Notes: a model not told the origin generated them from the letters alone. Shown: positions 1 through 36,032, counted from the first letter of the stretch. The stretch is 64,000 nt of DNA from Candidatus Omnitrophota bacterium (GCA_041663665.1 JBAYMG010000003.1:3991-67990); one strand, 5' to 3'. Made by a program: numbers and translations.

Positions 1-29
1 AATATTTAAAATACTCCGGGGTTAATTTC

Positions 30-533
30 TTGGTGCAAGGTCCGGCTAACTGGGTTGATTATGGAAGGCTTAACCTCGAAGGTAATAATATATTTTCTAT
101 TCCGATTAAACCAGACATCAGGGTTGATGAAGTACATTTTTTGCTGGGAGGCAATTATAGTAATAGTTATGAGCATGATTCGTTAATGCGCTTATATGGA
201 GACAAATATTTCTACGCAGTGCTAAAAGTTATTTTTGTTTATCAGGATGGTGTCTATAAAGAGCTTTCTGTGCCAGTTTTTTGGGATTGGTTTCGGATTA
301 ACCTTGGCGTATGGTCTAAAAACGGGGCAAGGATTGAATCTTTGGGGGAGAATCCGGTACGCAAAGATTGTAATATATTCCATGCCAGTTTTATTAATCC
401 CCGGCCGCTTGAGATGGTAAAAGATATTTTAGTTACGGATAGCTGGATAGATGATCGTCCGTTTTCAGATGTTTTTGCGGTTACGCTTAAGTCTTCTGAT
501 GTGTTCGAAGCAGCAGCAAAAGAAGGGAAATAG
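30..533 (+). CDS. hypothetical protein, possibly 5'-truncated by the window edge
   Basis: ORF track entry (TTG at 30). The frame stays open back to position 3, so the true start may lie upstream of the window. No recognisable catalytic motif. Stop is 1 nt before the purD start. Confidence 0.4.
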   Translation: MVQGPANWVDYGRLNLEGNNIFSIPIKPDIRVDEVHFLLGGNYSNSYEHDSLMRLYGDKYFYAVLKVIFVYQDGVYKELSVPVFWDWFRINLGVWSKNGARIESLGENPVRKDCNIFHASFINPRPLEMVKDILVTDSWIDDRPFSDVFAVTLKSSDVFEAAAKEGK

Positions 534-1816: not shown

Positions 1817-2299
1817 ATGGCAAGAGTGAGTATACTTATGGGCAGCCAGTCAGATTTAGAAACGGTAAATGAAGCAATTAGTGTTTTAAAGGAATTTAAA
1901 GTAGATTTTGAGGCTAAAGTTTTATCGGCGCATAGAACACCTAAAGAGGTGGCGCAATATGTTCAGCAAGCGCCTAAAGCCGGAACAAAGGTTTTTATTG
2001 CTGCTGCCGGAATGTCTGCAGCGTTAGCCGGAGTGGTAGCTGCGCATACAACTTTGCCGGTCATTGGCATACCGATTGAAACAAAAAATTTAAAAGGCCT
2101 GGATTCGCTTTTGTCAACTGTGCAGATGCCCCCGGGGGTTCCGGTTGCTTGTATGGCGATTGGTAAGTCTGGTGCAAAGAATGCCGCACTTTTTGCGCTT
2201 GAAATTTTAGGTGTTACTGATCTTAAGATTAGTGCAAAATTAGCCGGTTATAAAAAGCAAATGCGCTTAAAGATAAAAAAGATTAAAATTAAATTATGA
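1817..2299 (+). CDS. purE: N5-carboxyaminoimidazole ribonucleotide mutase (PurE)
   Basis: MARVSILMGSQSDLETV...SAHRTP...AAGMSAALAGVVAA, 160 aa. GGGGGAAG Shine-Dalgarno 5 nt upstream. Confidence 0.93.
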   Translation: MARVSILMGSQSDLETVNEAISVLKEFKVDFEAKVLSAHRTPKEVAQYVQQAPKAGTKVFIAAAGMSAALAGVVAAHTTLPVIGIPIETKNLKGLDSLLSTVQMPPGVPVACMAIGKSGAKNAALFALEILGVTDLKISAKLAGYKKQMRLKIKKIKIKL

Positions 2300-3357
2300 G
2301 TTTGACCAGAATAGTTAAAGTTAATCCGCTTGATCCTGAAGAGGCAGGCATTAAGCAGGCAGCTAAAGTTATAGCCGGCGGCGGATTAGTAATTATTCCT
2401 ACTGAAACTGTTTATGGTGTTGCGGCGAATGCTTTGGACAAAAAGGCGCTCGACAGGCTTTATGAAATTAAAAAACGGCCTAAAGATAAACCTTTTGCCA
2501 TACTCATCGGACAGCTGGACAAGGTGGAGGAATTTGCTTGCGATATTCCGGCGGCTGCTTATAAATTGATCAATAAGTTTTGGCCGGGCCCTTTAACGAT
2601 TTTATTGAAAGCTAAAACTCAGGGCAAGGTTGGCTTGCGTATGCCGGATAATCAGGTTGCTTTAGATATTATTGCTCAAGCAGCAGTTCCGGTAGCTTGT
2701 CCTTCAGCTAATATCAGCGATAATTTAGCTCCGGCTGATTTTAAACAAGCAATTAAAGATTTGGATGGTTTGGTGGATTTGGCCATTGATGCCGGACAGG
2801 CAGCCTTAGGAATAGAATCCACTATTGTGGATTTAACAGTTATCCCGTTTAAAATAATTAGAAGCGGGGCGATAAAAGATGAAGATATAATTTCTACCGT
2901 TAAAAATAAGAAAGTACTTTTTGTCTGTACAGGTAATTCCTGCCGTTCGGTAATGGCTGAGGCGTATTTAAAGAAACTTTTAGCAAGAGACAGAAGATCT
3001 GATGTCCAGGTTAGTTCTGCCGGCATGATGGCGCTTGAGGGAATGGGTGCCAGTGGTGAGACGCGCCAGGTTTTGGAAGCAGAAGGTATAGATGCAGGAA
3101 CTCATCGTTCAGTAAGAGTGAGCAAAGAGTTAGTCGATCAGTCAGATATTATTTTGGTTATGGAAAAGATACATGAGGAGAGAATTCTGCAGCTTGCTCC
3201 GGAAGTAAAGAATAGGCTTTTTTTATTAAAAGAATTTGCTAAGATAAATGATAGTAATTTGAATATTTCCGATCCTATTGGAGGGTCTTTGGAATTTTAT
3301 CAAGAGGTGTTTTCGGTTATTAAAGATGCCGTAGAAAGGATAAGTAAGATTATATGA
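2296..3357 (+). CDS. fusion protein: L-threonylcarbamoyladenylate synthase domain (YrdC/TsaC, Sua5_yciO_yrdC) + C-terminal low-molecular-weight protein tyrosine/arginine phosphatase domain
   Basis: N-terminal ~190 aa IIPTETVYGVAANALD...WPGPLTILL (YrdC fold). C-terminal ~150 aa VLFVCTGNSCRSVMAEAY (CX5R P-loop) and ISDPIGG (DP motif) of LMW-PTP. Start overlaps the purE stop (ATGA). Confidence 0.85.
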   Translation: MSLTRIVKVNPLDPEEAGIKQAAKVIAGGGLVIIPTETVYGVAANALDKKALDRLYEIKKRPKDKPFAILIGQLDKVEEFACDIPAAAYKLINKFWPGPLTILLKAKTQGKVGLRMPDNQVALDIIAQAAVPVACPSANISDNLAPADFKQAIKDLDGLVDLAIDAGQAALGIESTIVDLTVIPFKIIRSGAIKDEDIISTVKNKKVLFVCTGNSCRSVMAEAYLKKLLARDRRSDVQVSSAGMMALEGMGASGETRQVLEAEGIDAGTHRSVRVSKELVDQSDIILVMEKIHEERILQLAPEVKNRLFLLKEFAKINDSNLNISDPIGGSLEFYQEVFSVIKDAVERISKII

Positions 3358-6469: not shown

Positions 6470-7960
6470 ATGCTTGTTCGTTGCACTCACAAATATTTCA
6501 CTAAATCAAAACTTATGATGCTTAAATTCAGCGAAAAAGAAAAAGATATTTTAAAGCCGGTTTATAACTTTGCTTTAGCTAAAAAAGTAAAGTTATTTCT
6601 TGTCGGGGGGGCTTTGCGTGATTTAATCCTTAAAAGAACGAAAGTAAATCCGGATTTTGATTTTTGTTTAAAAAAAGGAGCATTAACGTTTGGCCGCCGG
6701 CTCGCCCAGGAGATAAGAGCGGCTTTTGTAGTGTTGGATGAAGAGCATGCTGCTTGCCGCCTGGTTAAGAAAATTGACGGCCAAGTTTATACATTTGATC
6801 TATCGGATTTTCGTGCGGAAACTTTAGAAAGAGACCTGTTGCACCGGGATTTTACGATAAATTCTTTAGCTTTAGAGTTAAAGCATGTTTTTACAGGGCA
6901 AGACTTAGAGGAGTTAATTATTGACCCGAATTCCGGAAGAGGTGACATAAAGCGTAAAGTAATAAAAGTTACCAGCAAAGATTCTTTTAGCGAGGATCCT
7001 TTGAGAATCCTGCGGGCTTTCAGTTTAAGTTGTATTTTAAAATTTAATTTAGACAGAGAAACATTAGCTTTATCCAAAAAAGAAAGAAATAAGATTAGCG
7101 GTGTTTCAGCTGAACGTGTTCGCGAAGAGTTATTTAAAATCCTGGATAGCGGTTCAGCTTATGATTCTTTAGTAATTCTGGATAGACTTAAGATCCTGGA
7201 GATTATTTTTCCAGAAATTAAACCCATGCGCAAGATCGGGCAGGGGCCGCATCATCACCTGGATGTTTGGCAGCACACTTTGGAAACATTGAATCAGTTT
7301 GAGCTGATATTGAAATCGGTTAAGCGCGAAGAGATAAACAGTTATCTTAATGAAGAGGTTTCCGGGCTACGTAAAAGATCAAGCCTTTTAAAATTAGCTT
7401 GCATCTTGCACGATGTGGGGAAGCCTAAAGCATTACGCAGAGAAAAAGGGAAGATTATTTTTCACGGCCATGAGCGTGTGGGTTTGGGCTTAACCCGCGT
7501 TATTTGCCGCAGATTAAAATTATCCAATGAGGAATGCCGCTGTTTAGAGAGAATTGTGCTTTGGCATTTAAGGCCGGGATATTTGGCTTCAAGCAAGCGT
7601 CCTACCCAACGGGCGATCTTTCGTTATTTCCGGGACACAGGCAGCGATGCGTTAGCTGTGCTTTTGTTGTCTTTAGCTGATCAGCGTGCAACCAAAGGCC
7701 CTTTGGCTACGGCTCTTTCACGCGTCTGCCATGAGCGGACAGTTAAAGCGTTAATTAATAAATTATTAAAGAAAAACAGCGAAATTAAGCCAATGCGTTT
7801 TTTAAACGGCAATGATCTTATGAATAAATTTAAATTAGCAGCTTCGCCTTTGATTGGCAAGGTGCTTAGCCGATTAGAGGAGTCACAGGCTATCGGTATG
7901 ATTAAAAATAAAAAAGAAGCTTTAAGCCTGGCGGCAAAAATAATTAAACAACAGAAATGA
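6470..7960 (+). CDS. cca: CCA tRNA nucleotidyltransferase (PolyA_pol head + HD domain)
   Basis: LFLVGGALRDLILKR head domain and HD motif HHHLDVWQHTLE...LHDVGKP. The true start may be an internal ATG at 6515/6518, since there is no SD at 6470. Confidence 0.85.
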   Translation: MLVRCTHKYFTKSKLMMLKFSEKEKDILKPVYNFALAKKVKLFLVGGALRDLILKRTKVNPDFDFCLKKGALTFGRRLAQEIRAAFVVLDEEHAACRLVKKIDGQVYTFDLSDFRAETLERDLLHRDFTINSLALELKHVFTGQDLEELIIDPNSGRGDIKRKVIKVTSKDSFSEDPLRILRAFSLSCILKFNLDRETLALSKKERNKISGVSAERVREELFKILDSGSAYDSLVILDRLKILEIIFPEIKPMRKIGQGPHHHLDVWQHTLETLNQFELILKSVKREEINSYLNEEVSGLRKRSSLLKLACILHDVGKPKALRREKGKIIFHGHERVGLGLTRVICRRLKLSNEECRCLERIVLWHLRPGYLASSKRPTQRAIFRYFRDTGSDALAVLLLSLADQRATKGPLATALSRVCHERTVKALINKLLKKNSEIKPMRFLNGNDLMNKFKLAASPLIGKVLSRLEESQAIGMIKNKKEALSLAAKIIKQQK

Positions 7961-10389
7961 AAAAGTTTATTATAATCGGAATAATCCTATTTATAATTTC
8001 TTTAGGGGCTATTGCCTATTTAAATAAAGTAATCCTTCCTCAAAAAATCAAATCCCTGATTATATCTACGTTAAAAAAGCAGACCGGTAAAGATGTTACT
8101 ATAAAATCTCTGGAGTTTAGTTTATTCAAAGGTTTAGTCTTGCGTGATTTGGTTGTTACTGATAATCAAAATGTAATTTTAAGTACGCGTCAGGCGGACT
8201 GTAGCATCTTTATCTGGCCGATTTTTAAAAAACAGATTATTATTCCGAGTATTGCTCTGAGAAGCCCGTATATTTTCCTCGAGCGCAGGCAGGATCAAAG
8301 TTTTAACCTGCAGGACCTTTTTACCCCTGCTATTCCGGCTAAACCGGCGGATTTCAGTATTACTGTTTTTAAGGTAAGCGTAGTGAATGGTAATGTTGTT
8401 TTTCAGGATGATACGTTGGCAGTAAAATTTAAGAAAGAATTAAAAAATATTCAATTTAGTTTGCATTTGGGCCTACCGGTTAATATCAAATTTAATTTTA
8501 AAGGTGAAATTTCGAATAATCCTTCGGTTTTTATTGATGCTACCGGTGAATACAAAATCTTGAACCGGGAATTAGTTAGTAAAGTAACGGTTAAGAATTT
8601 ATCAATGGGAGAGTTTGCTGTTTATTACAATAATTTAAGCGGCTCAGTCTCAGGGTTGGTTAATTTAGATGCGCAGATTAATTTCAAGGGCCAAATGTTG
8701 CAGGCCTATGTTAATGCTAAAGCGGACAGCCTGGTTTTGGCAAAAGATAAATTAAAAGCTAAAATAAACTTAAATATTCAAACAAAAATTAATTATGACC
8801 TTGGAAGTAAAGTGTTTAGTTTTGATGGTTTATGCGATATTTTGCAGGCTGATATTTCGGGGATAGACTTTGTGGATGGTATTAAAAATTTGCGCGGCAA
8901 GTTTACTTTTAATCAGGATTCTTTAGTTGCGGAAAATTTAAAAGCAGAATTATTAGGTAAGCAGTTTGAAATTAAGCTAGGGGTCAAAGATTTTAATACC
9001 CCGGTGTTAAGCATCGATACAGATTTAGATTTAAATTATTTACCCAGTATCCTTAAGGATAGGTTTAAATTTACGATGATCGATTCAGCCAGCGGTAAGT
9101 CAACGCTATCAATCAAAGCATATCCGGGCAAGAATGGTGACTGGGCGCTCCGCGGGGATATGAATATTAAGGCAGCTAGTTTAAAGCTGGAGAAGCAAAA
9201 TGTCCCGGTAGAAAATATTTCGTTGAAATTAGCATTCAGCCAGGATGGCCTCAATTGGGAGAATGCTAAATTTAAATACCAGGGGATCGATTTTGAGAGT
9301 AGCGGTACTTTAGTTAATTTTGTTTCACCGGGCATTAAGTTAAAACTTTATTCCGCAGATTTATCCCTAGTTTCAGAGTTTGATTGTTCAGGTAAGAAGC
9401 TAAAACTTAGCCAGCTTAAAGGTAAATATCTTGATTCGCAATTTTTAATCAGCGGAGATATAGATAATACTAATCCTGAAAAACTACAGGTAGATTTAAA
9501 TGGTCAGGTTAATCTGGTGCTGGGAGATTTAAACCGGATATTGGCTAAACAGTATCCGGCAATAAAAACCATGAAGTTAGCCGGGCAGGTGGACATAAAA
9601 TTTAATTTGAATGGTGCTCCGGTTGATTTTAAAAACTGTTACCTGCGGGCGAAACTTACGAGCAATAATTTTTCTGGGTATGGCTTGCATGCGCAAAATT
9701 TGAATTTCGATTTTTTCCAGGATCAAAAAATAGTTAAGATTTCTGCCTTTCGTATTGGTTTTTATGATGGGTTAATTGAAGGTAGCGCTGAGTTAAATTT
9801 GGATGATCTTAATCCTGCGTATCAACTGGAGTTAAAGGCTGTGGGAATAAAAATTGAAAAATTAAAGCTGGATACCCCGTCAAAAGATAAAAATATTTCA
9901 GGTACGCTGCTTGGTGAATTAAAGCTCAATGGTTTTTTAAATGATTTAAATAAGTTAAACGGAGGGGGAAGTTTTTCGATCAGTGAAGGTAAACTTTGGG
10001 AGTTGAATTTACTTCAAGGAATAGGAAACATTTTGTTTACTAAGGATTTGGGGAGCATTACATTCTCCGATTGCAGCTCTGATTTTAAGATCAAAGATAA
10101 ATTTGTCTACATGGATAATCTAAAATTGAAAAGTGAAATCGCCAATATTTCCGGGTCTTTAAAAATTGGTTTTGATAGTTCTTTGGATGGGGCTCTAAAT
10201 GTTGAGATTATAAGTGCCATGATTCCGGTAACCGGAACCTTTAAGGATGTCAGTACCGCTATCCTGGGTAATGGCGGAGTATTCGGGGTTATTAAATTAG
10301 GCGGCACCCTTAGTCAGCCGAAGCATAGCTTTAAGCCGGCAGTAAGTAATATTATCCGGGGCTTGACGGATGTAATTTTTGGTAAATAA
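7957..10389 (+). CDS. AsmA-family outer-membrane biogenesis protein
   Basis: N-terminal TM anchor MKKFIIIGIILFIISLGAIAYL followed by ~780 aa of beta-rich repeats typical of the AsmA/TamB-like family; ATGA overlap with cca. Confidence 0.65.
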   Translation: MKKFIIIGIILFIISLGAIAYLNKVILPQKIKSLIISTLKKQTGKDVTIKSLEFSLFKGLVLRDLVVTDNQNVILSTRQADCSIFIWPIFKKQIIIPSIALRSPYIFLERRQDQSFNLQDLFTPAIPAKPADFSITVFKVSVVNGNVVFQDDTLAVKFKKELKNIQFSLHLGLPVNIKFNFKGEISNNPSVFIDATGEYKILNRELVSKVTVKNLSMGEFAVYYNNLSGSVSGLVNLDAQINFKGQMLQAYVNAKADSLVLAKDKLKAKINLNIQTKINYDLGSKVFSFDGLCDILQADISGIDFVDGIKNLRGKFTFNQDSLVAENLKAELLGKQFEIKLGVKDFNTPVLSIDTDLDLNYLPSILKDRFKFTMIDSASGKSTLSIKAYPGKNGDWALRGDMNIKAASLKLEKQNVPVENISLKLAFSQDGLNWENAKFKYQGIDFESSGTLVNFVSPGIKLKLYSADLSLVSEFDCSGKKLKLSQLKGKYLDSQFLISGDIDNTNPEKLQVDLNGQVNLVLGDLNRILAKQYPAIKTMKLAGQVDIKFNLNGAPVDFKNCYLRAKLTSNNFSGYGLHAQNLNFDFFQDQKIVKISAFRIGFYDGLIEGSAELNLDDLNPAYQLELKAVGIKIEKLKLDTPSKDKNISGTLLGELKLNGFLNDLNKLNGGGSFSISEGKLWELNLLQGIGNILFTKDLGSITFSDCSSDFKIKDKFVYMDNLKLKSEIANISGSLKIGFDSSLDGALNVEIISAMIPVTGTFKDVSTAILGNGGVFGVIKLGGTLSQPKHSFKPAVSNIIRGLTDVIFGK

Positions 10390-10416: not shown

Positions 10417-11805
10417 ATGGCAAGGAGAGATATGTCGAATAATAAAATTTTTCTAGAAAAAAAAGATATCCCTAAACAATGGTATAACTTAGCTGCTGAT
10501 TTATCCGGGCCAAGGCATCCGCCTTTAGCTGCTGATGGTTCTACTCTTAAGGCTGGAATGCTAGAAAAGGTGTTTCCTGCTAATATTATTGAGCAGGAGG
10601 TTTCTACTGCCCGTTGGATTAATATCCCTGAAGAGATCCTGGAGATTCTAACTTTGTGGAGGCCTGCTCCGTTACGTAGGGCTTTAAGGTTAGAGAGATA
10701 TTTAAAAACTCCGGCGCGTATTTATTATAAAGATGAAAGCGTAAGCCCGGCAGGAAGCCATAAACCAAATACTGCTGTAGCTCAAGCCTGGTACAATAAG
10801 GAGTTCGGAATTAAGCGATTGACTACCGAAACCGGGGCAGGGCAGTGGGGTTCTGCTCTTGCTTTTGCTTGTAATTTAATTGGGCTTAAATGCAAGGTTT
10901 ATATGGTGCGCATTAGTTTTGATCAAAAGCCAATGCGTAAAACTATGATGCAGGTCTGGGGTGCAGAATGTGTTGCTAGTCCCAGTTCGACTACACGCTC
11001 TGGCAGAGAAATATTAAAGAAGATGCCGCATACACCTGGTAGCTTAGGTATGGCAATTAGTGAAGCAGTGGAGGATGCCCTTTCTGATAAGAGCGGTAAA
11101 TCCCGTTATTCTTTAGGCAGTGTTTTAAATCATGTTTTATTGCACCAGACAATTATTGGCTTAGAGGCAAAAAAACAGCTAAAAATAGCTGGTGAGAAAA
11201 AACCGGATATAGTTATTGGTTGTGTTGGCGGCGGGAGCAATTTTGCCGGTATTGCCTTTCCTTTTATTAGTGATAAAATTTGCGGCCAAAATATAGAAAT
11301 TATTCCTGTTGAGCCAACGGCTTGCCCGACTTTAACTAAGGGTCCATTTACTTATGATTTTGGCGATGTTGCCGGGCTTACTCCATTATTGGCTATGCAT
11401 ACATTGGGGCATAGATTTGTTCCAGAGCCGATTCATGCCGGAGGATTGCGCTACCACGGTATGGCGCCTTTAGTAAGCCAAGCAGCAGTCGAAGGTTTGA
11501 TTACACCGCGTGCTTATGATCAGATTAAATGTTATCAGGCAGCTTTCCTTTGGGCCAGAACTGAAGGAACAATTTGTGCCCCTGAAACAAGCCATGCGAT
11601 TGCTTGTGCTATTGATGAAGCCAGGAAAGCTAAAAAAGAAGGTAAACAAAAAGTGATTTTATTTTGCTATAGCGGGCATGGGCTGATGGATTTAGCCGGA
11701 TATGATAAATTTTTATCCGGTAAGTTAACCAGGTATGCGCTTCCAAGAAATAAATTACACAACTCTTTGAAGTCGATCAGAGGTTTGCCTAAAATAGAAT
11801 GTTAA
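10417..11805 (+). CDS. TrpB-like PLP-dependent enzyme (tryptophan synthase beta chain 2 family, TrpB2)
   Basis: 462 aa; conserved TrpB2-family regions (e.g. [40 protein letters not shown]), the TrpB2 N-terminal extension, and no trpA nearby. Confidence 0.85.
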
Positions 11806-12551
11806 GAATCGATTTAAATAACAATTTTTTTCGAAAATTGATTTATTTTAAAAAATATCTGTTTATTTTATCAGCTTTACCTTTGTTAATTTTATTTAAT
11901 CTTTTGCTCTGGGCGAATGCCGACGTCCTTCATTTAAAAAATGGCCGTAGCATTGAAGGGCTGATTAAGAAAGAGACCGCGGATAATGTTGAGTTAGAGA
12001 TAAGTTTTGGTTCTATGAAATTTTCTAAAGATCAGATAGAGAACATTGAAAGATCTTCACCTGTCCAGGTGGAATTGATCCGGCAGGAATGGAGTGAAGA
12101 AAAAGCCAAAGTGCAGGAAAGGGCTAAAGCGGTAGAAGAAGAAAGGGAGCATGCGCCAAAACAGGTAAGCGTGGATAAGAAAAGCGGGCATGTGATTGTG
12201 GTAACTACGTTAAATAAGGAAGTAAAAGCCAATCTTGTTTTAGATACCGGTGCTTCTTTGATGATGTTGTCAAATAAAGTAGCGGTTAGTTTGGGCTCAA
12301 GTATTAACTCTAGCAGCGGGAAGGTTATTGATTTAATAATGGCCGACGGCCGCAGAGTAGAAGCTAAAATGGTAATTTTAGATAGTGTAAGCGTGCAGGA
12401 TTCTGAGGTGCAAAATGTCGAGGCTGCGGTTTTGTCAGCAGAAGACAGTGATGCTGTTGTCGGTGACGGCCTGCTGGGTATGTCTTTTTTGAAACACTTT
12501 AATTTTAAAATTGACCAGAAGTATGGTAAGTTAATTTTGGAGAAGCTGTAA
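11799..12551 (+). CDS. membrane-anchored retropepsin-like (clan AA) aspartic protease
   Basis: N-terminal TM helix, a coiled-coil linker, and the retroviral-type protease signature [20 protein letters not shown]; overlaps the TrpB2 stop by 7 nt. Confidence 0.7.
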
Positions 12552-12968
12552 ATGAAATCTCACACCGAATATCTCTATTTTAATACCACTCAAAGGCAGG
12601 AGTTTGTTAATATAACTAGCCAGGTGGAGAAGGCTCTGGCTAAAAGCGCAATCCAAGAGGGTTTGTGTTTAGTTAATCCTATGCATATTACCGCCAGCGT
12701 TTTTATCAATGATGATGAAACTGGTTTGCATCAGGATTTCTCTCTTTGGCTTGAAAAACTAGCTCCGTTTAGTAAAGATAGATATCAGCATAATTCTACC
12801 GGCGAAGATAACGCGGACGCGCATTTGAAGCGTACGATCATGGGTAGGGAAGTAGTAGTGGCAGTAACCGGAGGAAAGTTAGATTTCGGCCCATGGGAGC
12901 AGATTTTTTACGCTGAGTTTGATGGCCAACGCAAGAAACGGGTGCTGATTAAAATAATCGGGGAATAA
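12552..12968 (+). CDS. YjbQ/UPF0047 family protein (secondary thiamine-phosphate synthase-like)
   Basis: 138 aa; typical YjbQ length and fold sequence ([21 protein letters not shown]). Confidence 0.8.
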
Positions 12969-12970
12969 TT

Positions 12971-13906
12971 ATGAAAATAAAAAATACCGAAATTAAAGTG
13001 ATGCTGGGTGATATTACTGAGCAAGAAGTAGATGCTGTTGTTAATGCGGCTAATAATAAATTATTGATGGGTGGAGGTGTAGCTGGGGCGATTAAGAAAA
13101 AAGGCGGCCAGATTATTGAAGATGAAGCAATAAAAGATGGGCCTATTGAAATTGGGCAAGCGATTGCAACTGGTGCAGGTAAACTCAAAGCAAAATATGT
13201 GATCCATGCTGCAACTATGGGTATGGATTTTAAGACTGATGAAATTAAAATTCGTAATGCTTGCCGGAGCTCGTTGGATTTAGCCGGGAAATTAAAAATT
13301 AGTTCAATTATCTTTCCGGCTTTAGGTTGCGGTACCGGAGGATTTCCTTTGTTAGCTTCAGCTAAGATTATGGCTCAAGAGCTTTTAAAAGACTTGCGTC
13401 AGGAAAAGTCAGGGTTAAAAGAGGTAACCTTCTGTTTGAATAATCAGGAAGCAGTTGCTGTTTTTAACAAAGGTGTATTAGGCTATTTAGAGTATGTAAC
13501 CACAAAATTATCCGGCGGTCCGTATGTTACAGTGGATGCAATTATTGAATTATCGGAAGGAATCGTGATTATCGAGCGTAGTAATCCGCCTTTTGGCTGG
13601 GCACTGCCTGGAGGATTTGTAGATTATGGAGAAAGCTTGGAGGAAGCAGTAATTAGAGAGACAAAAGAAGAAACTAATTTGGATTTAACTGAAATTAAAC
13701 AGTTTCATACTTATTCTAACCCGCAGCGTGACTTGCGATTTCACACAATCGGAACTGTATTTATTGCCAAAGCTAAGGGTATTCCTAAGGCTGGTGATGA
13801 TGCAAAGGGCCTAAAAATTGTTAAATTAAGTGAGATAGAGAAGCTGCAACTTGCCTTTGATCATAAGAAAATTCTTCAGGATTACCTTCAGGCAAAACAG
13901 GCTTAA
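12971..13906 (+). CDS. Macro domain (ADP-ribose/O-acetyl-ADP-ribose binding) fused to a NUDIX hydrolase (ADP-ribose pyrophosphatase-like)
   Basis: N-terminus [29 protein letters not shown]...HAAT (macro domain). C-terminus Nudix box [24 protein letters not shown]. Confidence 0.8.
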
Positions 13907-15807
13907 CCTTCGCGTAATTGTTTTTCGGCGTCAACAATATCGCGGTTAATTACGCGGATGGTTTCTTTGATTTTATCTTTAAGTAAATAGGAAGCAACCG
14001 GGGCACCGGAGATTTCCCTTAAAACTTGCACGCTCATCCGAAAATACCGGACTACTTCACCTTCATCGCAATCCGTCAGTAATAATGTTTTATCAAAACT
14101 TGTCCCGCGTAGCCAGGCTTCCATAGCAGAACAGAGATGAAAATAGGGAAGCTTGCTAAAAGGATAAATTTTATAGCGTCTTTCCTTATCTTTTATCTGG
14201 TCATAGGTTTCTTCGCATGTTTTTTTAAGCCAGCGGCTGGATTTGGATATGCTTGATGGCATGCGTTGATTTTTGCGGGGGTCGAAGACAACAGAGGCCG
14301 CTACTACGCCTAATCCGAATTCATCTTGTTGTTCAAGGATGTTCTGTTCGTATAATTCCGAGAGGACTAATTCATAGCCATAAACAGTTTTAGCAAATTT
14401 TCCTTTGTTGGTAAGTTTTCCGTCAGAGATATAGTTTAAGTCTTTGAGTAGTTTAAGTTTTGCATCCAAGAGATTTAATGCATGTTTCTGTTCGTTTTTA
14501 CGTGATTGGTAATAATGTAAAGAAAGAGGATAAATTTTAAATAAATCCTCCTGATATTTTTCATAAAGATTAAGAATAGTGGCATAAGAAGTATTTAATT
14601 GGCTTTTTACTTCCTCAGGCTTGCCATAAATTATTCTGCGTACATCATCAAAGGTCATTCTTTGTGAGTTAACTCGCGTATAGACAAACCCTTCTTTGTC
14701 AATACCGCGCCTTCCGGCCCTGCCGGCCATTTGGAAAAAATCGCGGGTTTTTAAATTACGGACATAGGTACCGTAAAATTTACGCAGGCCGTCAAACATA
14801 ACCGAGCGGCTGGGCATATTGATCCCCAGGGCAAATGTTTCGGTGGTAAAAATTACTTTAAGCAAGCGGCTGGTAAAAAGCCGTTCGATTACTTCTTTTA
14901 ATGTGGGCAGCATCCCGGCGTGGTGATAGGCAATACCGCGTTGAATGAGGGGGTAAAGCATTTGGGCTGATTGTTCATTTTTTAAGTTAAATCTTTCCAG
15001 CAGATCTTCATACATCTGGGTAATTGCCCGGCTTTCTTTAGCGTCTAAGAATCTAAATCCATATAATTCCTGAGCAAGCTCTTCAGCGCGTTTACGGCTA
15101 AAAACAAAATAAATTGCTGGAAGCCCGTCATTATTACGCAAATAATCAATTAGCGAGCTTAATCTGTTAGGTTTATTTGAGCGGATGCGTTTAAGGTGCT
15201 CGATTTTATCGACGATTTCATTTTGGCACTGGAAAAGGAAATGCAAGGGGACCGGGCGGTTGTCTTCAATAACTACTTGGACGCTCTTATTATGGATTGA
15301 TTCGATCCAGGCGGCAAACTGCTTGATATTCGGGATCGTCGCTGACAGTCCAAGCAGCTTCATGTGTTTAGGGAGGAAAATCAGTGATTCTTCCCAGACT
15401 GTCCCGCGTTCAGGATTATCAATGTAATGAATTTCGTCAAAAATAACCCAGGTGTATTTATCCAGGCTTTGCGGTTCATCCAATATTTTATTACGTAGAA
15501 TTTCGGTAGTCATGATTAAAACCGGGGCTTGTGGGTTAATTGAAACATCACCGGTTAGGATGCCGATATTATCTTGAAATTGTCCTTGGAAGTCGCGGAA
15601 TTTTTGATTGGAGAGGGCTTTGATCGGTGCAGTATAGATAACTCCTAAATTATTAATAATCGCGTTGCTAATAATATATTCGGCAATAGCGGTTTTTCCA
15701 GCTCCGGTTGGCGCTGAAACAATTACTGAGTGCCCATTGTTTATATGGTCAATGGCTTCCTGCTGGAATCGATCGTAAATCATGAATCCATTATAATCTA
15801 AAATCAT
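13903..15807 (-). CDS. Ski2/HelY-like DEAD/DEAH-box superfamily-2 RNA helicase with a DSHCT-like C-terminal domain
   Basis: Q-motif FQQEAI, motif [10 protein letters not shown], motif II FDEIHY, SAT motif GLSAT. This is the only minus-strand CDS in the window. Start is uncertain (ATG at 15807, 15786 or 15843; track TTG at 15993 would overlap the divergent gene by 150 nt). Confidence 0.8.
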
Positions 15808-15841: not shown

Positions 15842-16393
15842 ATGGGGTATGAGGTTGCGCTTAATAAAGCTTGGGATAATTTGGCTAACCAGAAGGCGCC
15901 CAATAATTTATCAGTAAAATTTATGGGCGATGAGTATAGTATAGACATTGTTCTAAAGCGTATCCTTTCTCTATCTTGTAACACTCCGGTCAAGGATTTT
16001 CCGGCTATCTTAATTTTGCATTATTTGCTGCAGAAATTAAAGGGGATGCCTGCAATAACTGGCCTCTGGCTTACTTTCAGGGAGTTTTCCGGGATTGAAG
16101 GTTATTATGACGCTTATCATAAGCGTTCAATTGAGCCGTTAATCCGTAAATATGGCAAGCATCCGGATGCCATTAAAGATGTTTTAAACCGGTTACCGGG
16201 CAGGCTTGCCAGCGGCGGAGATGTAGGTATTATTATTGAGGTTTTTGAGGATATTCCGGTATTGATCAAACTTTGGGAGCAGGATACGGAATTTGGCCCG
16301 GATGCCAATATGTATTTTGACGCAAGCATAAAAGACATTTTTTGTATTGAGGATATTATAGTTTTAGCTCAACTGGTTAGCAGTCAGCTTTAG
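15842..16393 (+). CDS. hypothetical protein, DUF3786-like
   Basis: 183 aa, no catalytic motif recognised. N-terminus YEVALNKAWDNL and the SLSCNTPVKDFPAILILHYL segment resemble the DUF3786 family as I recall it. An internal start at 15923 is possible. Confidence 0.45.
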   Translation: MGYEVALNKAWDNLANQKAPNNLSVKFMGDEYSIDIVLKRILSLSCNTPVKDFPAILILHYLLQKLKGMPAITGLWLTFREFSGIEGYYDAYHKRSIEPLIRKYGKHPDAIKDVLNRLPGRLASGGDVGIIIEVFEDIPVLIKLWEQDTEFGPDANMYFDASIKDIFCIEDIIVLAQLVSSQL

Positions 16394-22946: not shown

Positions 22947-24218
22947 ATGTTTATAATTTATAATTTAATATTTTTTATTTTTATGTTGGGGTATCTACCC
23001 ATTTATTTATTACGCGGTAAATTCCACCGTGGATTTGCCCGGCGTTTGGGGTTTCTACCTGATAACCTGAAATTGGATAATCCGATTTGGATTCATGCCG
23101 TAAGCGTTGGTGAGGCTATTGCGGTTAAAGGATTAGTTGCTGAATTAAGAAAAGCTTATCCGCAGAAAAGGCTGGTTATTTCTACTGTAACTGCTACGGG
23201 GAATAAACTTGCGGAAAGTTTAATAGCTGAGGGTGATTTTTTGACTTATTTGCCTTTAGATTTTAGTTTTCTCGTTAAACATGTTCTTAAACAGGTTAAT
23301 CCTTGCATGTTTATTATCGCTGAGACTGAAATTTGGCCTAATTTGATTACCTGCCTTTATAAGCAAAAAATACCAGTAATTACGGTTAACGGCAGGATTT
23401 CGGATAGTTCTTATTCCGGGTACCGGGCAATTAAATTTTTTATCCGGCCGATTCTAAATAAAATTACAAAATTTTGCGTACAATCAGGTACTGATGCGCA
23501 GCGTTTGCAAAATTTAGGGGTGGATAAAAATAAAATTCAGGTTACCGGGAATGTAAAGTTTGATATTAATTTAGAGGTAGTTTCGCAAATAGATGCATTA
23601 AGTTACCGCCAGAAACTTATGTTTGGTCAGGGAGATAAATTATTAATTTGTGGCAGTACGCATCCGAAAGAAGAAGAAATAATTTTTGAAGCTTACAAAC
23701 AGCTTTTAATAATTTTTCCTCAGATGAAACTTCTTATTGCCCCTCGTCATCCGGAGCGCAGTAAGGGTATTGCCAAGTTGGCGGTGGATAATGGTTTTAC
23801 GCCGGTTCTTATTTCAGATATACTTAACTTAAGCTTAGCCTCTATTAGCCGGCCAGTATTTATTTTAAATATAATCGGTGAGCTATTTAATTATTATTCT
23901 GCTGCAGATATTGTTTTTATTGGGGGTAGTTTTGTTAAAACCGGAGGGCATAATATTCTTGAACCGGCTAGTTTGAATAAGCCGGTCATTTTTGGTCCGC
24001 ATATGTATAATTTTCGGGACATCAGTGAATTATTTTTAAAAAATAAAGCTGCTTTCATGGTTTTTGATGCTGATGAATTGGCGGCAAAGATAAAAGAAAT
24101 TATTGAAAGCGATTCTTTAGTTCAAGGAATAGTTGCTCGGGCTAGGGAGTTAATTATTAAGAACCGGGGGGCAAACAAAAGGAACATTCAGGTTATCTGG
24201 GATCTAAATTTAATTTAA
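22947..24218 (+). CDS. waaA: 3-deoxy-D-manno-octulosonic acid (Kdo) transferase
   Basis: IWIHAVSVGEAIAVKGLVAELRKAYP matches the WaaA/KdtA N-terminal signature; 423 aa. Confidence 0.9.
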   Translation: MFIIYNLIFFIFMLGYLPIYLLRGKFHRGFARRLGFLPDNLKLDNPIWIHAVSVGEAIAVKGLVAELRKAYPQKRLVISTVTATGNKLAESLIAEGDFLTYLPLDFSFLVKHVLKQVNPCMFIIAETEIWPNLITCLYKQKIPVITVNGRISDSSYSGYRAIKFFIRPILNKITKFCVQSGTDAQRLQNLGVDKNKIQVTGNVKFDINLEVVSQIDALSYRQKLMFGQGDKLLICGSTHPKEEEIIFEAYKQLLIIFPQMKLLIAPRHPERSKGIAKLAVDNGFTPVLISDILNLSLASISRPVFILNIIGELFNYYSAADIVFIGGSFVKTGGHNILEPASLNKPVIFGPHMYNFRDISELFLKNKAAFMVFDADELAAKIKEIIESDSLVQGIVARARELIIKNRGANKRNIQVIWDLNLI

Positions 24219-24223
24219 GGAGC

Positions 24224-24700
24224 GTGAATATGGCGGGTGAAATTTATCTGACACAGGAAGGTTATGAAAAGCTGGTTAATGAATTAGAGTATTTAAAAAC
24301 CGTTAAGCGCCACCAACTTTCAAGAGCCGTAGGCGAGGCGCGGGCACACGGGGACATTAGTGAAAATGCTGAATATGATGCAGCTAAAGATGCCCAGGGT
24401 CATAATGAGAAACAAATTGTGGAGTTAGAAGATAAATTGGCGCAGGTGCGCATTCTTGATAAGAATATCTCCAGCGATGAAGTTTTAATCGGGGCGACAG
24501 TAAAGCTAAGGGATATGGATACTGATGAAGAGTTGGAATATACTTTAGTTTCGGAGCTGGAGGCAGATTATAACCGGGGTAAGATTTCTGTGAATTCTCC
24601 GGTGGGAGGTGGTTTGTTGGGTTATAAGGAAAATGAAATAGCGGAAATAAAAATTCCTGCGGGGATTTTAAAATATAAAATAGTTAAGATATCGCGTTAA
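24224..24700 (+). CDS. greA: transcription elongation factor GreA
   Basis: LTQEGYEKLVNELEYLKTVKR...AHGDISENAEYDAAKD; 158 aa. Confidence 0.95.
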   Translation: MNMAGEIYLTQEGYEKLVNELEYLKTVKRHQLSRAVGEARAHGDISENAEYDAAKDAQGHNEKQIVELEDKLAQVRILDKNISSDEVLIGATVKLRDMDTDEELEYTLVSELEADYNRGKISVNSPVGGGLLGYKENEIAEIKIPAGILKYKIVKISR

Positions 24701-24709
24701 GCTTAAAAA

Positions 24710-24877
24710 ATGCAAGAGAAGATCGGACATTTGAAAGTAAATATTTTTAAGATTAAGAATCGGGCAGGGTTTGCGGCTATTTGCTTTGAGCATCTTACTG
24801 AAGGTAAGACTCCTCAGGAAGCCTACGAGCGTATGGTTAAGGCTATACGCAGAAGCAATCACAAGCAGATAGGTTAA
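24710..24877 (+). CDS. small hypothetical ORF (55 aa), not in the ORF track
   Basis: ATG 24710 to TAA 24875-24877, in the only long (>200 nt) gap of this region. Peptide MQEKIGHLKVNIFKIKNRAGFAAICFEHLTEGKTPQEAYERMVKAIRRSNHKQIG. No SD seen; coding status unproven. Confidence 0.25.
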   Translation: MQEKIGHLKVNIFKIKNRAGFAAICFEHLTEGKTPQEAYERMVKAIRRSNHKQIG

Positions 24878-24911
24878 ACAGGTTGGTTGTTCTATTAATC
24901 GATAAAGCCAG

Positions 24912-25292
24912 ATGAAAAAAACTATTTTTAGTTTGTTGATTATTTTTCTAATTTGTATAGTTTCCATTGTTTTTGCCGGTCAGGATTTTTCACGAAAATT
25001 TAAGGTCATACGCGTTCCTTTGGGAAAGGTTATCGCTATACCTTTGGACTCAAATCCCTCTACGGGATTTAGCTGGCAGTTAGTAAAAATATCGGATAAG
25101 ATGATTCTAGAGTTTGTAAAAAAAGAATATATCGCTAATTCAGGAAACACAGTGGGTTCTGGGGGGATAGAGAGCTGGAGTTTTAAAACTCTTAAACACG
25201 GTACGGCAATTATTGTCTTAGAGTATGTTCGAGCTTGGGAAAAAGATTTAGCTACAGCAAAAAAAGAAGAGTTTACTGTTTTTGTTGAATGA
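24912..25292 (+). CDS. secreted chagasin-family (I42) peptidase inhibitor-like protein
   Basis: Signal peptide MKKTIFSLLIIFLICIVSIVFA. The NPSTGFSWQL motif matches the chagasin NPTTGY(S/T)W signature. 126 aa. Confidence 0.55.
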   Translation: MKKTIFSLLIIFLICIVSIVFAGQDFSRKFKVIRVPLGKVIAIPLDSNPSTGFSWQLVKISDKMILEFVKKEYIANSGNTVGSGGIESWSFKTLKHGTAIIVLEYVRAWEKDLATAKKEEFTVFVE

Positions 25293-25765
25293 AAAAACTA
25301 GATATAAAATTTATGCAGTTGGCAATGGCTAAGGCTAGAGCGGGGGTAGAAAGCGGCCAGACTCCTTTTGGTGCCTGTATTGTGAAAAATGGCAAAGTTA
25401 TTGCCTGCAGCCATAATATTGTCTGGCAGGATACGGATATTACTGCTCATGCTGAAATAACTGCAATTCGCCTTGCCTGCAAGTCATTAAGAACAATAGA
25501 CCTGTCTGGCTGTACTATTTATTCTACCTGTGAGCCATGTCCGATGTGTTTTTCTGCTTGTCATTGGTCGAGGATCTCAAGGATTGTTTTTGGTGCCGGG
25601 ATCCAGGATGCCCGGAGATTCGGTTTTAATGAATTGGCGATTTCTAACTTAAGGCTTAAGCAATTAACTAAAAGTAAGATTGAAATTATCTCAGGCTTAT
25701 TGGTTAAAGAGAATATCGGGCTTTTTGAGTTTTGGCAAAGACAGCCGAAAGCGAAAACTTATTAA
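25289..25765 (+). CDS. CDA-fold nucleoside/nucleotide deaminase (TadA / guanine deaminase-like)
   Basis: HAEITAI ... CEPCPMC zinc-binding motifs; 158 aa; ATGA overlap with the upstream gene. Confidence 0.8.
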   Translation: MKKLDIKFMQLAMAKARAGVESGQTPFGACIVKNGKVIACSHNIVWQDTDITAHAEITAIRLACKSLRTIDLSGCTIYSTCEPCPMCFSACHWSRISRIVFGAGIQDARRFGFNELAISNLRLKQLTKSKIEIISGLLVKENIGLFEFWQRQPKAKTY

Positions 25766-25769
25766 CAAG

Positions 25770-25783
25770 TAATTTGCAAATTA
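25770..25783. promoter_or_regulatory. 14-bp perfect palindrome TAATTTGCAAATTA 9 nt upstream of the STAS-PilZ start codon
   Basis: Read directly; sits where an SD or operator would be expected. Confidence 0.3.
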
Positions 25784-25792
25784 GATCCTAAT

Positions 25793-26515
25793 ATGTTAGA
25801 GATAAAAATAAGGCAGCTGGGGAATATTGTTATTTTAGATTTAAGCGGACGCATAGACGTAGATTCGGCTAATTTAGTGGAAGTAGCCGGCCAATGTGTG
25901 TCTAATGGTTACATAGATATTCTTTGTAATTTTGAAGATATTCAGACTATCGATTATATGGGTATTTCGGTAGTGGTTATTGCTTATAAAGAGGTGGTTA
26001 ACCATCTGGGTAGAATGAAATTTATCAATATTCCGGCACACCTTAAGAGTGCTTTAGTAGTTTCCGGCATAGACAAGGTTATTGAAACTTATGCTTCCGA
26101 AGATATAGCCTTAAATAGTTTTAAGGAAGATAAAATTATTGAGAAAATTAAGAAAATGCAGCTGCGCCGCAGGTTTAAGCGCTTGCCCATTGACCTAAAG
26201 GTAGAATTAAAATCTAAACAAGATAATTCTTTATCCTGTCCGGAACTTGACATGCTTAACTTAAGCGCTATCGGCGCTTATATATTCGGGTGTAATAAGT
26301 TTAAACTGGGGGATGAAGTATTGCTTAAGATGAAGCTTGCTCCGCAACAGGACCAGCTCTGTTTAGAGGCAATCGTAGTTTGGATACCGGATAGGGCTGT
26401 TCAACCGCATCAGTATCCGGGAATCGGGGTAGAGTTTGTTAATCTATCTATAGTCAACCAGCAGAAATTGATCGCATTTATTGAACGTAATCTTTCTTTT
26501 ATGTCTTCGGATTAA
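25793..26515 (+). CDS. STAS (anti-sigma-factor antagonist-like) domain fused to a C-terminal PilZ c-di-GMP-binding domain
   Basis: N-terminus IVILDLSGRIDVDSANLVE...KFINIPAHLKSALVVSGIDKV (STAS fold). C-terminus has RRRFKR (RxxxR) and NLSAIG (D/NxSxxG) PilZ motifs. Confidence 0.65.
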   Translation: MLEIKIRQLGNIVILDLSGRIDVDSANLVEVAGQCVSNGYIDILCNFEDIQTIDYMGISVVVIAYKEVVNHLGRMKFINIPAHLKSALVVSGIDKVIETYASEDIALNSFKEDKIIEKIKKMQLRRRFKRLPIDLKVELKSKQDNSLSCPELDMLNLSAIGAYIFGCNKFKLGDEVLLKMKLAPQQDQLCLEAIVVWIPDRAVQPHQYPGIGVEFVNLSIVNQQKLIAFIERNLSFMSSD

Positions 26516-26562
26516 AATTTCATATCTTGTTGTAACTCTTCAGTTTTTATTCTTTAAAACAG

Positions 26563-26591
26563 TTGCCCCGGCACTCCTTGTGTGATAAAAT
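26563..26591 (+). promoter_or_regulatory. sigma70-like promoter candidate for lpxK and the LPS operon
   Basis: -35 TTGCCC at 26563-26568, a 17-nt spacer, and -10 TAAAAT at 26586-26591. Confidence 0.3.
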
Positions 26592-26594
26592 ATT

Positions 26595-31658: not shown

Positions 31659-31727
31659 ACCACGTATATTCTGTAATTTTAACTATGGAATGGGGTTTAA
31701 TGAAATGAATAAGGAAGAGGGTGTAAG

Positions 31728-36020: not shown

Positions 36021-36032
36021 TATACCTTCAAG

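Follow-up and report, generated by a model that had tools for sequence, protein, structure and literature searches.

A TrpB2, retropepsin, YjbQ and Macro-NUDIX gene cluster of Omnitrophota is very probably an ordinary part of a compact, strand-biased chromosome

INTRODUCTION

Orphan status is normal for the TrpB2 family of tryptophan synthase beta homologues. Characterised TrpB2 enzymes are reported to use O-phospho-L-serine in a condensation with indole (Busch et al. 2014, as cited in PMC11917138), and structures of the archaeal S. solfataricus TrpB2 are available (6hul, 4qys and 6hte). Of 176 complete Omnitrophota genomes, 174-176 reportedly have canonical trpE/G/D/A/B genes (bioRxiv 10.64898/2026.06.07.730766), forming full trp pathways at other genomic locations.

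Two bacterial retropepsin-like aspartic proteases are relevant to the present work. APRc (ApRick) of Rickettsia conorii (5c9b, 5c9d and 5c9f) has one retropepsin lobe, a DTGAS active-site motif and, reportedly, an N-terminal membrane region such as is also expected for the clan AA DTGA family TIGR02281. RloA of Pseudomonas aeruginosa is described as retropepsin-like with an N-terminal signal peptide, and its gene lies in rloABC beside the genes for RloB (transglutaminase-like) and RloC (ATP-grasp). In this operon the secreted retropepsin is coupled with the cytoplasmic ATP-grasp protein (PMC11957051).

The YjbQ/UPF0047 family includes E. coli YjbQ and T. maritima TM0723 (1vmj). As cited in PMC3020362, the only activity known for the family is a weak, promiscuous thiamine-phosphate synthase activity (Morett et al. 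2008). According to a further study, YjbQ ‘has no clear function’, and in Pseudomonas its gene shares a transcript with an unrelated neighbour (bioRxiv 10.64898/2026.06.26.734693). MacroD-type macrodomains (YmdB, MacroD1 and TTHA0132) and ADPRase Nudix domains (NadM-Nudix) complete the set of families that we compare here with four adjacent genes of an Omnitrophota bacterium. These genes lie within a 64-kb stretch of DNA, all of which was analysed and which we refer to as the window. Our analysis concerns what their adjacency means.

RESULTS

Four plus-strand open reading frames occupy positions 10417-13906 and encode, in this order, TrpB2, the protease, YjbQ and the Macro-NUDIX protein (Table 1). 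The TrpB2 and protease genes overlap by 7 nt (ATGTTAA, 11799-11805), the stop codon of the protease gene abuts the start codon of yjbQ (TAAATG, 0 nt), and 2 nt separate yjbQ from the Macro-NUDIX gene. An AAGGAG sequence ahead of the ATG at 10432, together with a 457-aa gene call, suggests that TrpB2 probably starts at this codon rather than at 10417 (462 aa), in which case the gap to the upstream AsmA gene is 42 nt. On the other side of the cluster, the Ski2-like helicase gene is convergent with the Macro-NUDIX gene, a single TTAA containing the overlapping stop codons of both.

Table 1. Positions of the cluster genes, their predicted domains and the flanking genes in the window
Feature	Position (nt)	Residues	Strand	Basis
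AsmA/DUF748-like envelope protein, upstream flank	7957-10389		+	Pfam; part of conserved synteny block
TrpB2-type tryptophan synthase beta homologue, PLP enzyme	10417-11805		+	NF009057, TIGR01415, PDB matches, GSHKPN
Retropepsin-like aspartic protease, predicted to be exported	11799-12551		+	PF13975, PF13650, profile search, AlphaFold model, Foldseek
Protease, putative signal peptide	11799-11921	1-41	+	A-x-A|D site
Protease, predicted five-stranded beta domain	11922-12050	42-84	+	
Protease, predicted long helix	12060-12152	88-118	+	
Protease, predicted single retropepsin lobe, DTGA at residue 149	12159-12545	121-249	+	
YjbQ/UPF0047 family protein, predicted cytoplasmic	12552-12968		+	PF01894, TIGR00149, TM0723
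Macro-NUDIX fusion, 311 aa	12971-13906		+	PF01661 + PF00293
MacroD-like macrodomain	12974-13471	~2-167	+	PF01661
Nudix hydrolase domain	13526-13882	186-304	+	PF00293
Ski2-like DEAD/DSHCT helicase, downstream flank	13903-15783		-	Pfam; 626-aa gene call; kept beside Macro-NUDIX

The packing of the cluster was compared with that of the 64-kb window. About 98% of the window is coding and 60 of its 61 genes lie on the plus strand, the helicase gene being the sole exception. Same-strand neighbours are separated by a median of 1.5 nt, 57% of the junctions are 2 nt or shorter, and the window contains five runs of at least three such junctions. Unrelated genes show this kind of linkage too: the junctions within AroK-DprA-TopA-Xer measure -4, 0 and +2 nt, and there are mutual overlaps within PurE-Sua5-RpiB-GlyA. 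The G+C content of the cluster equals that of its surroundings. We conclude that the packing of the four genes is not above chance for this Omnitrophota genome.

Shine-Dalgarno-like motifs are situated within the preceding genes of the cluster, and a consensus scan identified no convincing internal terminator. Along with the overlapping and abutting genes, these features make co-transcription of the four genes plausible; they are probably read off the same long transcript, and their translation may be coupled. The corresponding consensus scan for promoters returned 42 promoter-like sites versus 25 expected, and neither scan is informative in AT-rich sequence of this kind. An Rfam scan for leader and riboswitch elements (T-box, Trp and thiamine elements) found no element, and a tRNA scan found no tRNA.

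The TrpB2 protein matched its family models over the full length with scores far above the cutoffs (NF009057, 694.5 bits versus 366; TIGR01415, 623 bits versus 518.85), whereas the canonical trpB model TIGR00263 reached only 148 versus a cutoff of 392. The nearest PDB entries are the S. solfataricus TrpB2 structures 6hul_B (E = 5e-127) and 4qys, and the 457-aa form carries the PLP-lysine motif, GSHKPN, at residue 108. Pfam searches of all genes in the 64-kb window revealed neither trpA nor any other trp gene. The protein therefore resembles S. solfataricus TrpB2 in its full-length match and PLP-lysine motif, and it resembles typical stand-alone TrpB2 in that its gene lies away from trpA and the trp operon; unlike the archaeal enzyme, it is a bacterial member of the family. 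Its likely role would be that of an extra, stand-alone tryptophan synthase beta homologue.

The protease exceeded the Pfam gathering cutoffs for PF13975 (54.7 bits versus 28.2) and PF13650 (53.5 bits versus 24.3), and fell just below the cutoff of the TIGR02281 subfamily model (57.8 bits versus 57.95). D149, T150 and G151 are invariant among 60 homologues. A PDB search with the single sequence gave no match, whereas a profile search identified ApRick/APRc (5c9b, E = 3e-12). An AlphaFold model was obtained with a mean pLDDT of 83.7 and values of ~80-93 over most of the retropepsin domain. The top Foldseek matches to this model were the APRc structures 5c9f (TM 0.77, rmsd 2.4 Å) and 5c9b (TM range for the pair 0.74-0.77, target-normalised in each case), followed by DDI1 and the HIV and FIV proteases. 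Thus, the modelled structure is that of a retropepsin fold. The protein shares with APRc the single retropepsin lobe and the DTGAS active-site motif, and with only one lobe per chain it would be expected to work as a homodimer, as APRc does.

Among the four cluster proteins the protease alone has an N-terminal hydrophobic segment, with none found in TrpB2, YjbQ or Macro-NUDIX. After this segment comes a conserved signal-peptidase site, A-x-A|D, in which 56 of 57 homologues have Ala at -1. The N-terminus therefore most likely serves as a cleavable signal peptide and not as a membrane anchor, and the protease would be exported via Sec and act outside the cytoplasm. A catalytic domain predicted to lie outside the cytoplasm is a further likeness to APRc; the differences from APRc and TIGR02281 are the cleavable-looking signal peptide, the small beta domain with an LKNGR motif, and the long charged helix. 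By description the protein is also like RloA, in being retropepsin-like with an N-terminal signal peptide and in having a gene beside those of cytoplasmic proteins. Unlike rloABC, however, the locus contains no RloB or RloC partner, and the neighbours are TrpB2, YjbQ and Macro-NUDIX. Differing compartments are not decisive against a joint function, because in the rlo operon one gene encodes a secreted retropepsin and another an ATP-grasp protein of the cytoplasm (PMC11957051).

YjbQ gave full-length matches to PF01894 (129 bits versus a cutoff of 27) and TIGR00149 (116.4 bits versus 67.75). Its nearest PDB entry is T. maritima TM0723 (1vmj, E = 4.7e-60), and in its full-length family match it is like this protein and E. 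coli YjbQ. We expect it to be a cytoplasmic protein doing its own separate job.

Both halves of the Macro-NUDIX protein carry intact signature motifs, as in MacroD-type proteins and ADPRase Nudix domains. The macrodomain scored 105.3 bits for PF01661 (cutoff 22), matched TTHA0132 in the PDB (2dx6, E = 1e-32) and contains both ADP-ribose-binding motifs, one of the N-x6-GGG type at residue 25 and GCGTGGFP at residue 119. The Nudix half scored 72 bits for PF00293, matched 2yyh (E = 3e-32) and contains the Nudix box (GX5EX7REUXEEXGU) at residues 215-237, with all of the catalytic Glu and Arg residues present and N at the usual G position. Across 139 full-length homologues the Macro GGG motif was found in 116 and the Nudix box in all 139. 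The named NCBIfam Macro equivalogs (O-acetyl-ADP-ribose deacetylase, ADP-ribose-binding protein and DarG) all scored below cutoff, the best being NF001667 (127 versus 252), with DarG at 38 versus 250. For the Nudix half, the best NCBIfam similarity was to the ADP-ribose pyrophosphatase domain of NadM-Nudix, also below cutoff. Hence the protein differs from the named NCBIfam equivalogs in falling under every cutoff. A proline ~16 residues past the box marks ADP-ribose specificity in Nudix hydrolases; in Macro-NUDIX a proline is found at +14, not at +16.

All homologues retrieved with Macro-NUDIX as the query were Omnitrophota proteins (77-83% identity), and among the best 150 representative clusters at 50% identity the architecture appeared in only about a dozen. 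Judged from these domains and motifs, Macro-NUDIX alone is a coherent candidate ADP-ribose-processing unit in the cluster, and it would be self-contained. The macrodomain would free ADP-ribose from O-acetyl-ADP-ribose, ADP-ribose-1''-phosphate or ADP-ribosylated targets, and the Nudix domain would then cleave ADP-ribose to AMP and ribose-5-phosphate. The chemistry expected of MacroD and ADPRase proteins, de-acylation or de-ADP-ribosylation followed by ADP-ribose hydrolysis, would make the fusion a logical two-step unit; unlike the known systems, the two predicted activities are fused in one 311-aa chain.

An earlier note on this DNA had described four plus-strand genes with a 7-nt overlap and 0-nt and 2-nt gaps, encoding a TrpB-like PLP enzyme that is an orphan without trpA in 64 kb, a TM-anchored clan-AA aspartic protease, a YjbQ/UPF0047 protein and a Macro/NUDIX fusion. 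On re-reading, all of the coordinates and junctions matched, and the profile HMMs confirmed each of the four domain calls. The retropepsin-like protease likewise stood, given the Pfam matches, the DTGA motif and the predicted fold, but the conserved signal-peptidase site makes a TM anchor less likely than a cleaved signal peptide.

Gene order was then compared across 80 species-level loci of Omnitrophota, the closest 80 of the 438 loci of relatives, with absence counted at the locus and not genome-wide. The conserved block reads NrdR-BFN-CCA-AsmA-[variable slot]-protease-(YjbQ)-Macro-NUDIX-helicase(-)-DUF3786-SNase-AroC, and in some relatives the protease gene directly follows AsmA. In 20 of 73 species TrpB2 adjoins the protease (73% lack it at the locus), and in 38 of 68 species YjbQ is adjacent (44% lack it there). 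Of 62 evaluable species, 14 have all four genes at the locus, and the four are contiguous in 7 of the 28 loci framed by BFN and SNase, so that the arrangement is not unique to one genome. On a Macro-NUDIX tree, TrpB2 underwent at least 10 state changes and YjbQ at least 9, and at the locus level the presence of one was uncorrelated with that of the other (odds ratio 1.3, Fisher p = 1.0). Gains and losses of the two genes are independent of each other. In other species, unrelated genes are found beside or between the members, including those for an Nth-like glycosylase, DUF6268, dCTP deaminase, a thioesterase, a pilin-like protein, a 731-aa membrane protein and GroES.

A first table of junction retention was biased by anchoring on the protease and was replaced by a control set of 28 loci framed by BFN and SNase. 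In these loci the inner junctions were kept in 36% (TrpB2-protease), 71% (protease-YjbQ) and 64% (YjbQ-Macro-NUDIX) of cases. The corresponding values were 96% for BFN-CCA and 75% for CCA-AsmA upstream, and 68% for Macro-NUDIX-helicase, 71% for helicase-DUF3786 and 82% for DUF3786-SNase downstream. Among the evaluable loci of the protease-anchored table, SNase-AroC was kept in 97% and NrdR-BFN in 100%. From the framed loci we conclude that the cluster junctions are no better conserved than the flanking junctions between unrelated genes (36-71% versus 68-96%).

Some of the associations at the locus speak against a plain array of independent genes. Where YjbQ is present, its junction with the protease is nearly always 0 or -4 nt, and the protease gene lies immediately upstream in 41 of 43 loci. 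The protease and Macro-NUDIX genes are close to each other, with Macro-NUDIX downstream and within 4.5 kb, in 55 of 68 species, down to ~36% protease identity; in many of the 17 loci without adjacent YjbQ, Macro-NUDIX starts 3-40 nt past the protease. In one lineage (L062 and L081) the protease, Macro-NUDIX and helicase genes occur together even though both flanks differ and the helicase gene is inverted, and persistence of this trio may reflect a functional tie among these genes. A separate clade (L028, L032, L036, L040, L064 and L082) has the protease in another conserved context without Macro-NUDIX.

DISCUSSION

The results are very probably explained by an ordinary stretch of a compact, strand-biased Omnitrophota chromosome, in which four functionally unrelated genes form part of a long co-directional array. 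The gene order of this array is maintained through much of the phylum. The four genes would be neighbours because the chromosome has nearly all of its genes closely spaced on a single strand, in an order that is preserved, and each of them most likely does its own job. A shared transcript and any translational coupling would reflect genome architecture rather than a common pathway.

An unlikely alternative is that a smaller core, consisting of the protease, an optional YjbQ, Macro-NUDIX and perhaps the convergent Ski2-like helicase, constitutes a functional unit, with TrpB2 as a passenger in the variable slot. Such a core might, for example, connect ADP-ribose turnover with RNA metabolism or with proteolysis in the envelope. 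The proximity of Macro-NUDIX to the protease in most species, its position just past the protease where YjbQ is not adjacent, and the trio that is retained despite replaced flanks and an inverted helicase gene are all in its favour, as is the precedent of a secreted retropepsin in an operon with cytoplasmic partners (PMC11957051). However, NrdR-BFN-CCA and DUF3786-SNase-AroC are equally conserved although they are functionally unrelated, one clade keeps the protease in a different context without Macro-NUDIX, and in several species thioesterase, pilin-like and membrane-protein genes lie between the two. We know of no mechanistic link between the domains of this core. It is quite unlikely that the exported protease and YjbQ and/or Macro-NUDIX, beside the Ski2-like helicase, which together are the most persistent portion of the locus in Omnitrophota, form a lineage-specific unit in which ADP-ribose metabolism would be connected with the processing of envelope or secreted proteins or with RNA turnover; if true, this unit would provide the first physiological context for YjbQ.

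The earlier note had also proposed that the four genes make up an undescribed small-molecule or ADP-ribose-linked modification and processing module, i.e. a dedicated operon for such a pathway. The tight junctions of -7, 0 and +2 nt are in keeping with this proposal, as are the species in which all four genes are present or contiguous. To our knowledge, no pathway covers TrpB2, a retropepsin, YjbQ and Macro-NUDIX. The packing, however, equals the genome background, membership is variable with TrpB2 and YjbQ lost independently and without correlation, the inner junctions are not better kept than the unrelated flanks, other species have unrelated genes lying between members, and the catalytic domain of the protease is predicted to be extracytoplasmic. 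The neighbourhood analysis has already largely refuted a dedicated four-gene operon, which we regard as very improbable.

Anti-phage systems include proteins with Macro, Nudix, helicase and nuclease domains. That the cluster is a mobile or defence island is nevertheless extremely improbable, since the PADLOC matches were weak and reflected generic single-domain similarity (Macro to DarG, 40 bits; Nudix to PDC-S07, 37 bits; helicase to HamB helicase cores; SNase to a candidate system) with no complete system, DarT or HamA, the composition is native, no integrase, tRNA or repeat is present at the borders, and in dozens of species the locus keeps its chromosomal position among housekeeping genes, a stable vertical synteny that argues against a mobile island.

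Interpretation of the locus as part of a conserved co-directional array carries a caution for similar cases. In compact, strand-biased genomes, overlapping or abutting genes and phylum-wide gene order are the background, and tight packing or conserved order is not evidence for a shared pathway unless it is weighed against the junctions of plainly unrelated neighbours. For the Omnitrophota, the analysis yields a cleaner description of a widespread retropepsin-like protease that is predicted to be exported, and of a Macro-NUDIX fusion that is conserved in the phylum; either could be a modest target for biochemistry.

Gene identities and predicted products

The four plus-strand reading frames of the TrpB2 cluster lie exactly where the earlier note had placed them (10417–13906), and profile searches confirmed all of its domain calls. 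TIGR02281 was borderline for the protease (57.8 bits, cutoff 57.95), and the canonical trpB model scored far under its own cutoff on TrpB2. Catalytic motifs are intact, i.e. the PLP lysine of TrpB2, DTGA in the protease, GGG and GxGxGGFP in the Macro domain, and the Nudix box. The described junctions were also confirmed in the sequence: the last 7 nt of TrpB2 (ATGTTAA) are also the first 7 of the protease, whose stop codon abuts the YjbQ start (TAAATG), and a 2-nt gap precedes Macro-NUDIX.

Features of the window, in window coordinates
Feature	Position	Strand	Basis or remark
TrpB2	10417–11805	+	NF009057, 694.5 bits; TIGR01415, 623 bits
Protease	11799–12551	+	PF13975 and PF13650 above cutoff
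Protease part 1, N-terminal helix			Signal peptide; AlphaFold model
Protease part 2, five-stranded beta domain	11922–12050 (residues 42–84)		AlphaFold model
Protease part 3, long helix	Residues 88–118		AlphaFold model
Protease part 4, single retropepsin lobe	Residues 121–249		AlphaFold model
YjbQ	12552–12968	+	PF01894 and TIGR00149 above cutoff
Macro-NUDIX	12971–13906	+	Macro PF01661; NUDIX PF00293
Ski2-like DEAD/DSHCT helicase	13903–15783	−	Gene-caller form, 626 aa
DUF3786	15842–16393		
Sua5/YrdC (t6A synthesis)–low-molecular-weight phosphotyrosine phosphatase fusion	2296–3357		353 aa
LPS/Kdo/Lpt array	22947–42669		Long, contiguous
Chagasin-family (I42) cysteine-peptidase inhibitor	24912–25292		Between GreA and TadA-like deaminase
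Class-V aminotransferase and SerA	44324–47143		Adjoining
Class II aminoacyl-tRNA synthetase	60040–63821 (with flanking genes)		Between two paralogous T2SSE/PilB-like ATPase genes
Reading frames of 167, 575 and 126 aa	30–533, 47140–48867, 52165–52545		No Pfam match at E ≤ 1e-5 or 1e-6

The closest structures to TrpB2 are those of Sulfolobus TrpB2 (E 5e-127). Its true start is most likely the ATG at 10432, right after AAGGAG, which gives the 457-aa form of the gene callers. Pfam scans of every window gene bore out the reported lack of trpA and found no other trp gene in the window. As complete canonical trp pathways have been reported in 174–176 of 176 complete Omnitrophota genomes (bioRxiv 10.64898/2026.06.07.730766), TrpB2 is an accessory second copy and its 'orphan' state is expected. 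PMC11917138, which also cites Hettwer & Sterner 2002 on TrpB2, gives O-phosphoserine as a reported co-substrate of these enzymes (Busch et al. 2014). The aminotransferase and SerA (3-phosphoglycerate dehydrogenase) pair would fit steps one and two of the phosphoserine pathway, but lies 30 kb from TrpB2.

The protease had been described as TM-anchored. A conserved A-x-A|D signal-peptidase site follows its hydrophobic N-terminus, position −1 being Ala in 56 of 57 homologues, which favours export instead; the protein is thus more likely to be exported than membrane-anchored, as predicted from these sequences. The protein divides into four parts in the AlphaFold model (mean pLDDT 83.7), and the best match by both structure and profile is Rickettsia APRc/ApRick. 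The beta domain, which is small and confidently modelled, carries a near-invariant motif beginning AD[TIV]; it weakly matches N-terminal modules of the Leptospira families PTPDL, LA_0442/LA_0875 and LB_137. The true start of the protease is uncertain. Its presequence, at 41 aa, is longer than most (homologue median, 31 aa), and initiation at codon 14, an in-frame TTG (about nt 11838), would leave a signal peptide of typical length (28 aa) and abolish the overlap with TrpB2.

YjbQ matches TM0723. A weak promiscuous thiamine-phosphate synthase activity is the sole one known for the family (Morett et al. 2008, cited in PMC3020362), which in 2026 still had 'no clear function'; in Pseudomonas the YjbQ gene shares a transcript with an unrelated one, and some species have lost it (bioRxiv 10.64898/2026.06.26.734693). 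Macro-NUDIX joins a MacroD-like domain to a Nudix domain closest to ADP-ribose pyrophosphatase domains, and is predicted to be a self-contained two-step enzyme disposing of ADP-ribose derivatives. The homologue search showed strong conservation within the phylum (77–83% identity), whereas among the best 150 representatives at 50% identity only about a dozen have the full-length architecture.

Gene packing

Strand bias is extreme: 60 of the 61 window genes lie on the plus strand, and every 2-kb bin shows positive GC skew. Neighbouring genes on one strand are separated by a median of 1.5 nt; 57% of junctions measure ≤2 nt, and there are five runs of at least three such junctions. The plainly unrelated AroK-DprA-TopA-Xer genes are joined by junctions of −4, 0 and +2 nt, and PurE-Sua5-RpiB-GlyA, equally unrelated, overlap one another. 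As the same geometry joins such genes, overlap or abutment is uninformative on shared function, and the packing of the cluster is not special against the window background. The four genes are probably co-transcribed within a long array.

The remaining genes are a housekeeping mix (purine, Kdo/LPS/Lpt, isoprenoid, ClpP, trigger factor and others). The LPS array comprises KdtA, LpxK, KdsB, KdsA, SIS-CBS isomerase, HAD phosphatase, LptC/LptA-like, LptB, an LpxL-like acyltransferase fused to an ELM1-like domain, and several GT4/GT9 glycosyltransferases, two of them double-domain. It is broken by GreA, the chagasin-type inhibitor, a deaminase and a STAS-PilZ protein.

The helicase is the only minus-strand gene. 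Its stop codon overlaps that of Macro-NUDIX (shared TTAA), leaving no space for a terminator between the convergent genes. The mechanical helicase frame, 696 aa from a TTG at 15993, runs into DUF3786; with the gene-caller start at 15783 the two divergent genes are 58 nt apart, and both strands of this interval have promoter-like sites.

Neighbourhoods in relatives

The protease and Macro-NUDIX match proteins of a Candidatus Omnitrophota MAG at 100% identity, and ENA contig k141_1036855 carries the locus. We placed twelve window proteins by tblastn on the closest 80 of 438 relatives' loci (one genome per species, nearly all Omnitrophota, protease identity 34–69%), and scored presence of the cluster genes at locus level. 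The cluster is part of a conserved block that extends well beyond it, NrdR-BFN-CCA-AsmA-[variable slot]-protease-(YjbQ)-Macro-NUDIX-helicase(−)-DUF3786-SNase-AroC, whose fastest-evolving protein is the protease. TrpB2 is directly upstream of the protease at 20 of 73 evaluable loci, and YjbQ directly downstream at 38 of 68; at 55 of 68, Macro-NUDIX is no more than 4.5 kb away. All four genes occur at only 14 of 62 loci. Elsewhere the upstream gene is an Nth-like glycosylase, DUF6268, dCTP deaminase or AsmA itself, and thioesterase, pilin-like or 731-aa membrane-protein genes separate the protease or YjbQ from Macro-NUDIX. Another clade has an SPL-like radical-SAM gene or GroES next to the protease, and the other three genes are missing there. 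On the Macro-NUDIX tree, TrpB2 changes state at least 10 times and YjbQ at least 9, and their presence at the locus is uncorrelated (odds ratio 1.3, Fisher p = 1.0).

The AsmA-protease slot is a gene-turnover hotspot across Omnitrophota (loci L008–L087), holding, by species, TrpB2, the Nth-like HhH-GPD glycosylase, DUF6268, dCTP deaminase, pyruvate kinase, DUF763, a 4HBT thioesterase or a second UPF0047 paralogue. The 731-aa protein is polytopic, lies between YjbQ and Macro-NUDIX in one lineage (L007, 7152–9347; L023, 11167–13362), and has no Pfam match on record.

Cohesion of the cluster

Because the loci had been anchored on the protease, the comparison was limited to the 28 loci framed by BFN upstream and SNase downstream, all internal junctions being scored on this same set.

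Junction retention at framed loci
Junction	Location	Kept
TrpB2-protease	Inside cluster	36%
protease-YjbQ	Inside cluster	71%
YjbQ-Macro-NUDIX	Inside cluster	64%
BFN-CCA	Flank	96%
CCA-AsmA	Flank	75%
Macro-NUDIX-helicase	Flank	68%
helicase-DUF3786	Flank	71%
DUF3786-SNase	Flank	82%

At evaluable loci, SNase-AroC was kept in 97% and NrdR-BFN in 100%. The four cluster genes were contiguous at 7 of the 28.

A smaller functional unit of the protease, (YjbQ) and Macro-NUDIX, perhaps with the convergent helicase, is improbable, because unrelated flanking pairs are equally conserved. In its favour, the protease and YjbQ are nearly always joined by a junction of 0 or −4 nt, the trio of protease, Macro-NUDIX and helicase outlives a rearrangement at two loci (L062 and L081, where the helicase and Macro-NUDIX share a strand), and secreted retropepsins can share operons with cytoplasmic partners (PMC11957051). 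A defence or mobile-island reading was rejected, as PADLOC matched generic domains only, composition is native and the cluster keeps its position from species to species; its borders have no tRNA, integrase or Rfam element.

The earlier proposal of one pathway or module finds no support, and ordinary packing, variable membership, the independence of TrpB2 and YjbQ, and junctions no better kept than the flanks all argue against it. The cluster is an ordinary one. Judged by junction retention and contiguity, it holds together no better than the housekeeping genes around it, and what is conserved is the general chromosomal gene order.
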